Positions 32,575 through 32,777 of a DNA stretch of 64,000 bases are shown here, piece by piece. The position numbers and the translations under genes were made by a program. The notes below the pieces were generated by a model. It searched no databases. It had not been told where the DNA came from and worked only from the letters and a program-made list of their open reading frames with translations. The stretch is from NCBI RefSeq assembly GCF_056712565.1, contig NZ_CM160072.1, one strand, 5' to 3'. Each line of letters begins with the position of its first letter. Position 1 is the first letter of the stretch.

Positions 32575-32659
32575 TGGTGGTGGGGGAAGGATTCGAACCT
32601 TCGAAGTCGATGACGGCAGATTTACAGTCTGCTCCCTTTGGCCGCTCGGGAACCCCACC
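32575..32659 (-). tRNA. tyrV: tRNA-Tyr (GUA), distal copy
   Basis: 85 nt; reverse complement reads GGTGGGGTTCCCGAGCGGCCAAAGGGAGCAGACTGTAAATCTGCCGTCATCGACTTCGAAGGTTCGAATCCTTCCCCCACCACCA. Confidence 0.95.
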
Positions 32660-32692
32660 AGGGGTAATTCATATTGTAGGTAATGCTTGAGA

Positions 32693-32777
32693 TGGTGGTG
32701 GGGGAAGGATTCGAACCTTCGAAGTCGATGACGGCAGATTTACAGTCTGCTCCCTTTGGCCGCTCGGGAACCCCACC
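32693..32777 (-). tRNA. tyrT: tRNA-Tyr (GUA), promoter-proximal copy
   Basis: Identical 85-nt tRNA-Tyr sequence, 33 bp upstream of the distal copy. Confidence 0.95.

Follow-up and report, generated by a model that had tools for sequence, protein, structure and literature searches.

Background

The closest described relative of the locus analysed here is the tyrT-tyrV operon of Escherichia coli K-12, which comprises tyrT, tyrV and the rttR/tpr repeats (Egan and Landy 1978, as cited in PMC8144298). Repeats of this kind are known as RtT RNA or tRNA-linked repeats (TLRs) (Rudd 1999, as cited in PMC8144298). A TLR is defined by an 18-19-bp copy of the 3′ end of the upstream tRNA, and its function is not established (PMC8144298). 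In K-12 strain BW25113 the two tRNA-Tyr genes lie 209 bp apart, with one annotated RtT unit in the spacer and three more units after tyrV. A literature search returned nothing specific published on natural variation in the length of the tyrT-tyrV spacer.

The tRNA-Tyr operon in the window

The window (the whole 64-kb stretch of DNA analysed here) contains only two tRNA genes according to ARAGORN, both tRNA-Tyr(GTA) on the minus strand. An earlier note on this DNA had described them as two identical 85-nt genes with 33 bp between them, and its coordinates and description proved exact by ARAGORN, Rfam and sequence comparison. Both 85-nt sequences match one another, K-12 tyrT and K-12 tyrV without a difference; for identical 85-mers only 118 bp apart, a chance match is impossible. 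The features of the locus, from the upstream neighbour to the far end, are as follows.

32937-33779, minus strand: purU, formyltetrahydrofolate deformylase, a conserved neighbour on the upstream side (open reading frame; annotated in the ATCC 11775 record)
32828-32855, minus strand: tyrT promoter, TTTACA, 16 nt, TATGAT, followed by a GC-rich discriminator (promoter scan)
32693-32777, minus strand: promoter-proximal tRNA-Tyr(GTA), the tyrT equivalent, 85 nt with CCA encoded (ARAGORN; Rfam tRNA model, 53.4 bits), same as K-12 tyrT
32660-32692, minus strand: spacer of 33 bp that doubles as 5′ leader for the second tRNA; its homologue in K-12 is the final 34 bp of the 209-bp spacer (alignment)
32575-32659, minus strand: distal tRNA-Tyr(GTA), the tyrV equivalent, 85 nt (ARAGORN; Rfam tRNA model), same as K-12 tyrV
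32398-32574, minus strand: single distal RtT/tRNA-linked repeat unit, 177 nt (Rfam RF00391; 19-nt repeat family)
32242-32397, minus strand: operon tail with a fractional repeat, a REP-like palindrome and a hairpin terminator common to narI (alignment with K-12 and strain 873.10, which has no insertion sequence there)
30924-32241, minus strand: IS4-family insertion sequence inside the narI/tyrT terminator (transposase open reading frame 30945-32174, 409 aa)

The operon sits directly downstream of purU on the same strand, with narI on its far side, and the roughly 110 nt directly before the first tRNA, including the promoter, are identical to K-12. On the operon strand the spacer reads TCTCAAGCATTACCTACAATATGAATTACCCCT. 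The distal repeat is a typical RtT/TLR. It matches the full-length RF00391 model at 32398-32528 (minus strand) with 129.4 bits against a gathering score of 45, and it ends in the 19 nt that are diagnostic of such units, copied from the tRNA 3′ end: AATCCTTCCCCCACCACCA at 32398-32416 recurs as the 3′ ends of the tRNA genes at 32575-32593 and 32693-32711. The unit is 95.5% identical to the distal units of K-12. A 901-bp query over the region gave a 100% match to E. coli ATCC 11775 (DSM 30083), whose record lists narJ, narI, an IS4-family transposase, RtT, tRNA-Tyr, tRNA-Tyr, purU, ychJ and rssA in that order.

The tyrT promoter would drive one transcript consisting of tRNA-Tyr, the 33-nt spacer, the identical second tRNA-Tyr and one RtT/TLR unit, and this transcript would end at the terminator common to narI. 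A single precursor is expected from the single promoter and the common leader, together with the result that a scan of the 33-bp spacer found no terminator on the operon strand. The spacer is the conserved 5′ leader of the second tRNA. Since the same leader stands before tyrV in K-12, both tRNAs should mature normally by established tRNA processing, in which RNase P would presumably trim the 5′ ends while endo- and exonucleases would form the 3′ ends. The predicted output of RtT-family RNA would be one here versus four in K-12.

Difference from the K-12 operon

The K-12 spacer consists of a 175-bp RtT/TLR unit, ending in the 19-nt copy of the tRNA 3′ end, plus 34 bp that differ from the 33 bp of the window by one indel and two substitutions in the pairwise alignment. 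The earlier note, which gave K-12 a spacer of about 200 bp related to the distal 178-bp repeats, was thus correct: the actual length is 209 bp, and the K-12 intergenic unit (I) is only 74% identical to the K-12 distal units (D). Among the D units, and between them and the single unit of the window, identity is 95-96%. With no I-type unit and a spacer of 33 bp versus about 209, the window does not carry the K-12-type long allele.

The two operons share the purU-narI locus, the promoter, the 85-nt tRNAs, the leader of the second tRNA and the downstream 178-bp repeat family. In contrast to K-12, the window lacks the 175-bp intergenic TLR, has one distal repeat rather than three, has a shifted tpr frame and carries an insertion sequence in the terminator. 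It has fewer TLR copies and is without the divergent intergenic subtype of K-12, O157:H7 and E. albertii. The shifted frame lies in the RtT unit at 32439-32507 (minus strand), where a 1-nt deletion turns CGAGCGCC into CGAGGCC and the 'tpr' frame ends after 22 aa, versus 29 aa in K-12. This frameshift speaks against tpr as a conserved protein-coding gene.

Aligned to K-12, the window shows one clean gap of about 176 bp, flanked by a 19-20-nt direct repeat, AATCCTTCCCCCACCACCA(T). A repeat-bounded indel of this kind is the footprint that one would expect if recombination or slippage had joined the tRNA 3′ end to the pseudo-3′ end of the repeat. The last 19-20 nt of tyrT would have paired with their identical counterpart of 19-20 nt that closes the TLR, and the intervening DNA would have been lost, whether by unequal crossing-over, intrachromosomal recombination or replication slippage. 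In O157:H7 Sakai (L003:1522-1730), the pseudo-3′ end of the intergenic unit has two substitutions (AATCCTTTCCCCACCGCCA). These shorten the perfect repeat shared with the tRNA 3′ end, so that loss of the unit should be less likely there.

The feature is real, as is the contrast with K-12, and it is a common, old and already annotated allele. The window very probably holds an ordinary tyrT-tyrV operon in its short-spacer form, in which the loss of the intergenic unit is old, widespread, probably recurrent and did not take place in this strain.

Spacer lengths in related bacteria

One genome per bacterial species was scanned with a pattern composed of the 19-nt tRNA 3′ end, 15-45 nt and the tRNA 5′ end. 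This pattern catches both short and long forms and returned 69 loci, all in Enterobacteriaceae, a count that leaves aside single-copy loci, tandem loci with diverged tRNA ends and spacers outside 15-45 nt. The gene purU stands directly upstream at each of these loci whose stored flank extends to it, and by tblastn it adjoins the tandem tRNA genes at almost all of the species loci.

Short spacers of 22-37 bp are found at 48 of the 69 loci, for example in Salmonella arizonae, Enterobacter cloacae, Citrobacter werkmanii, Kluyvera and Kosakonia cowanii. The short operons of Salmonella arizonae, Enterobacter, Citrobacter and Kluyvera have the same tandem tRNA-Tyr genes with purU upstream and usually TLRs after them, and they differ from the window only slightly, in spacer sequence. 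Long spacers of 202-214 bp are present at 15 loci, for example in E. albertii, Klebsiella michiganensis, Citrobacter youngae, Kosakonia quasisacchari, Lelliottia and Raoultella. The genera with long spacers are Klebsiella, Citrobacter, Kosakonia, Kluyvera, Lelliottia, Raoultella, Phytobacter, Pseudocitrobacter, Escherichia and others. Short and long forms coexist across E. coli and the Enterobacteriaceae, also inside single genera. Two loci have spacers of other lengths: 138 bp in Pseudocitrobacter vendiensis, where the I unit has an internal deletion (L070:2837-3144), and 386 bp in Leclercia adecarboxylata, with two I units between the tRNAs (L055:1956-2513). The remaining four loci are cut by the end of the stored DNA.

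Several loci depart from the simple tandem arrangement. In Citrobacter sp. MGH106 the array comprises three tRNA-Tyr genes in tandem, spaced 35 bp apart (L052:7136-7460). In Citrobacter amalonaticus ku-bf3 (L047:2105-2309), two tRNA-Tyr genes 35 bp apart are directly followed by a full I unit. A different start to the operon is seen in Citrobacter werkmanii, Kosakonia cowanii, Trabulsiella and others: a degenerate 5′ part of tRNA-Tyr, after which come two intact tRNA genes. The degenerate part and the 3′ two-thirds of an I-type TLR are joined at a motif common to both, CTTCGA..AAGGTTCGA (L005:351-700, L012:9833-10175, L013:995-1350, L044:875-1221, L049:1622-1960 and L061:1745-2088). These degenerate tRNA-Tyr/TLR fusions are a second class of repeat-mediated deletion, and the fusion loci hint at tRNA-Tyr as the origin of TLRs.

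Direction of the change

The intergenic units of the long form are orthologous across genera: 17 units from E. coli, E. albertii and other species loci align with 91% mean column identity. Their consensus fold contains compensatory double changes in 8 of the 50 predicted pairs, for example C-G to U-A in seven sequences. Given the orthology across genera and the conserved predicted fold, the I unit is an old RNA, not a recent duplicate of a distal unit, and both forms of the operon are old. The cross-genus comparison also contradicts the idea that intergenic units resemble the distal units of their own genus rather than each other. The distal units of E. coli are D-type, so that an I unit, once lost, could not be rebuilt internally. 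Loss is the direction favoured within Escherichia, judging from the sequences, since it takes one step, the I unit would have no internal source and E. albertii has the long form.

The main alternative is that the short form is ancestral and the long form of K-12 is derived, a TLR having been inserted or duplicated between the tRNA genes. Short forms do dominate, both among the species loci (48 versus 15) and in E. coli (54% versus 35% of the complete genomes), and arrays with an I unit after the second tRNA, such as that of Citrobacter amalonaticus (L047), could yield the long order of tRNA, I unit, short spacer and tRNA by unequal crossing-over. However, the I units are orthologous over the 15 long-spacer loci, in some ten named genera, and are distinct from the distal type. 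Any gain would therefore predate these genera and would not be an event of the K-12 lineage. Moreover, a gain needs two steps or imported DNA, whereas a loss needs one, and E. coli alone, with its D-type distal units, lacks the means to rebuild an I unit. We therefore regard this alternative as possible but rather doubtful. For the family as a whole, the short form, which is in the majority and includes Salmonella arizonae, could be the state at the root; the long form would then have arisen a single time, very early. In the taxa with I-type units after the second tRNA (loci L047, L007 and L031), unequal crossing-over could turn a short form into a long one.

Frequency and sequence backgrounds of the short form in E. 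coli

In E. coli, the short form was searched with 82 nt across the direct tRNA-spacer junction at E <= 1e-19, a limit that neither partial piece of the K-12 sequence reaches alone, and the long form with 141 nt specific to the junction of tyrT and the I unit. The short junction (tRNA followed by 33/34 bp) is present in 2,909 of the 5,426 complete E. coli genomes (54%) and the K-12-type junction in 1,921 (35%, all at full coverage); as some genomes may hold both junction types, these counts are close estimates. An independent, evenly spaced sample of the match ranking gave 31 short forms out of 60. The remaining genomes, about 11%, have single-copy loci (for example, EC958) or other arrangements.

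Among the 2,909 genomes, about 630, including CFT073, carry the very 33-nt allele of the window (at least 99% match). CFT073 and other short-spacer E. coli have the same tandem genes, and the 33-nt allele is that of the ATCC 11775/CFT073 group. The short-form strains 2014C-3338, 210205630 and 873.10 have instead the 34-nt spacer of K-12, exact or one base off, together with the K-12 upstream haplotype. The haplotype of the window differs from that of K-12 by 33 versus 34 nt, the two spacer substitutions and four upstream SNPs. Therefore, the short form occurs in E. coli on at least two backgrounds, one with K-12-like flank and spacer and the other with the haplotype of the window, which implies repeated deletion or an exchange of alleles by recombination. 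The genome counts and the haplotypes contradict a confinement of the short form to one recent clade around ATCC 11775. Its presence on at least two backgrounds fits repeated unit loss at a locus with a known record of recombination. The same instability is shown in real time by a sequenced laboratory supF strain, which had lost one tRNA gene and RtT at the tyrT-tyrV locus (PMC12584984).

The earlier note had attributed the short spacer to a recombination-mediated rearrangement in this strain. The part concerning recombination agrees with the repeat-bounded indel of about 176 bp; the restriction to this strain does not hold, given a junction found in more than half of the complete genomes. A recent event that shrank a K-12-like spacer of 209 bp to 33 bp in this strain would likewise account for the direct repeat at the borders of the indel, and laboratory strains do lose units at this locus. 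Against it stand not only the 2,909 genomes with the junction and the roughly 630 with the identical allele, but also another Escherichia species, MOD1-EC7003, whose spacer is the 33-nt allele of the window with one mismatch. In addition, the spacer and the upstream haplotype of the window differ from those of K-12, so the locus is no fresh derivative of a K-12-like allele. A strain-specific deletion was rejected on these distribution data and is highly improbable. The note had itself named a 33-bp spacer shared by K-12 and its relatives as the finding that would overturn its view: many relatives do share it, and K-12, with 209 bp, does not.

An assembly artefact in which a collapsed repeat removed a real intergenic unit was also rejected on the distribution data and can practically be dismissed, for although short-read assemblies classically collapse at tandem repeats of 85-178 bp, the region matches a finished complete genome at 100%, the junction recurs in complete assemblies made independently, thousands in number, as well as in representatives of species from many genera, and a 175-bp unit that shares only 74% identity with the units beside it does not collapse readily.

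Some individual genomes deserve mention. In EC958, which we take to be ST131, a single tRNA-Tyr is followed 16 bp on by an acyl-CoA desaturase gene instead of tyrV, RtT and narI (L004:1469-2661). This points to a different downstream segment in the EC958 lineage. The tRNA-Tyr region also has a few matches in records classed as plasmids, and 12 of the matching places there show the short junction. One genome of 4.83 Mb that bears the label 'DH5alpha' (NZ_CP026085.1) has the short form, unlike genuine K-12 derivatives, which suggests that it is a mislabelled strain.

Implications

K-12 is atypical of E. coli at this textbook locus: its 209-bp spacer with an RtT unit is the minority form and spacers of 33-34 bp are commoner. 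This is of use in annotation and in the engineering of tyrT/tyrV (supF) outside K-12. The locus is also a neat natural case in which DNA bounded by repeats is gained and lost around tRNA-linked repeats. The difference matters little, and neither the elements nor the mechanism are new.

The presence or absence of the intergenic TLR might also be a recurrent polymorphism kept by selection across Enterobacteriaceae, an idea that we consider improbable. If it were true, the intermediate frequency could reflect an effect of the unit on precursor processing, on tRNA-Tyr dosage or on the output of RtT-family RNA, and strains such as the present one would differ physiologically from K-12-type strains.

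The adjoining insertion sequence

The IS4-family element is a neighbour that lies outside the tRNA operon. Its transposase open reading frame matches Pfam DDE_Tnp_1 (E=8e-17), in agreement with the IS4-family transposase annotated in the ATCC 11775 record, and its terminal inverted repeats are 27 nt long and 81% complementary. An 18-nt likeness between the terminal repeat and the 3′ region of RtT falls mostly within the inverted repeat and the target and was taken as coincidence. The empty site is represented by the uninterrupted terminator of strain 873.10 and of K-12. In a sample of 40 E. coli genomes, about 3 have the insertion sequence at the narI/tyrT terminator site.
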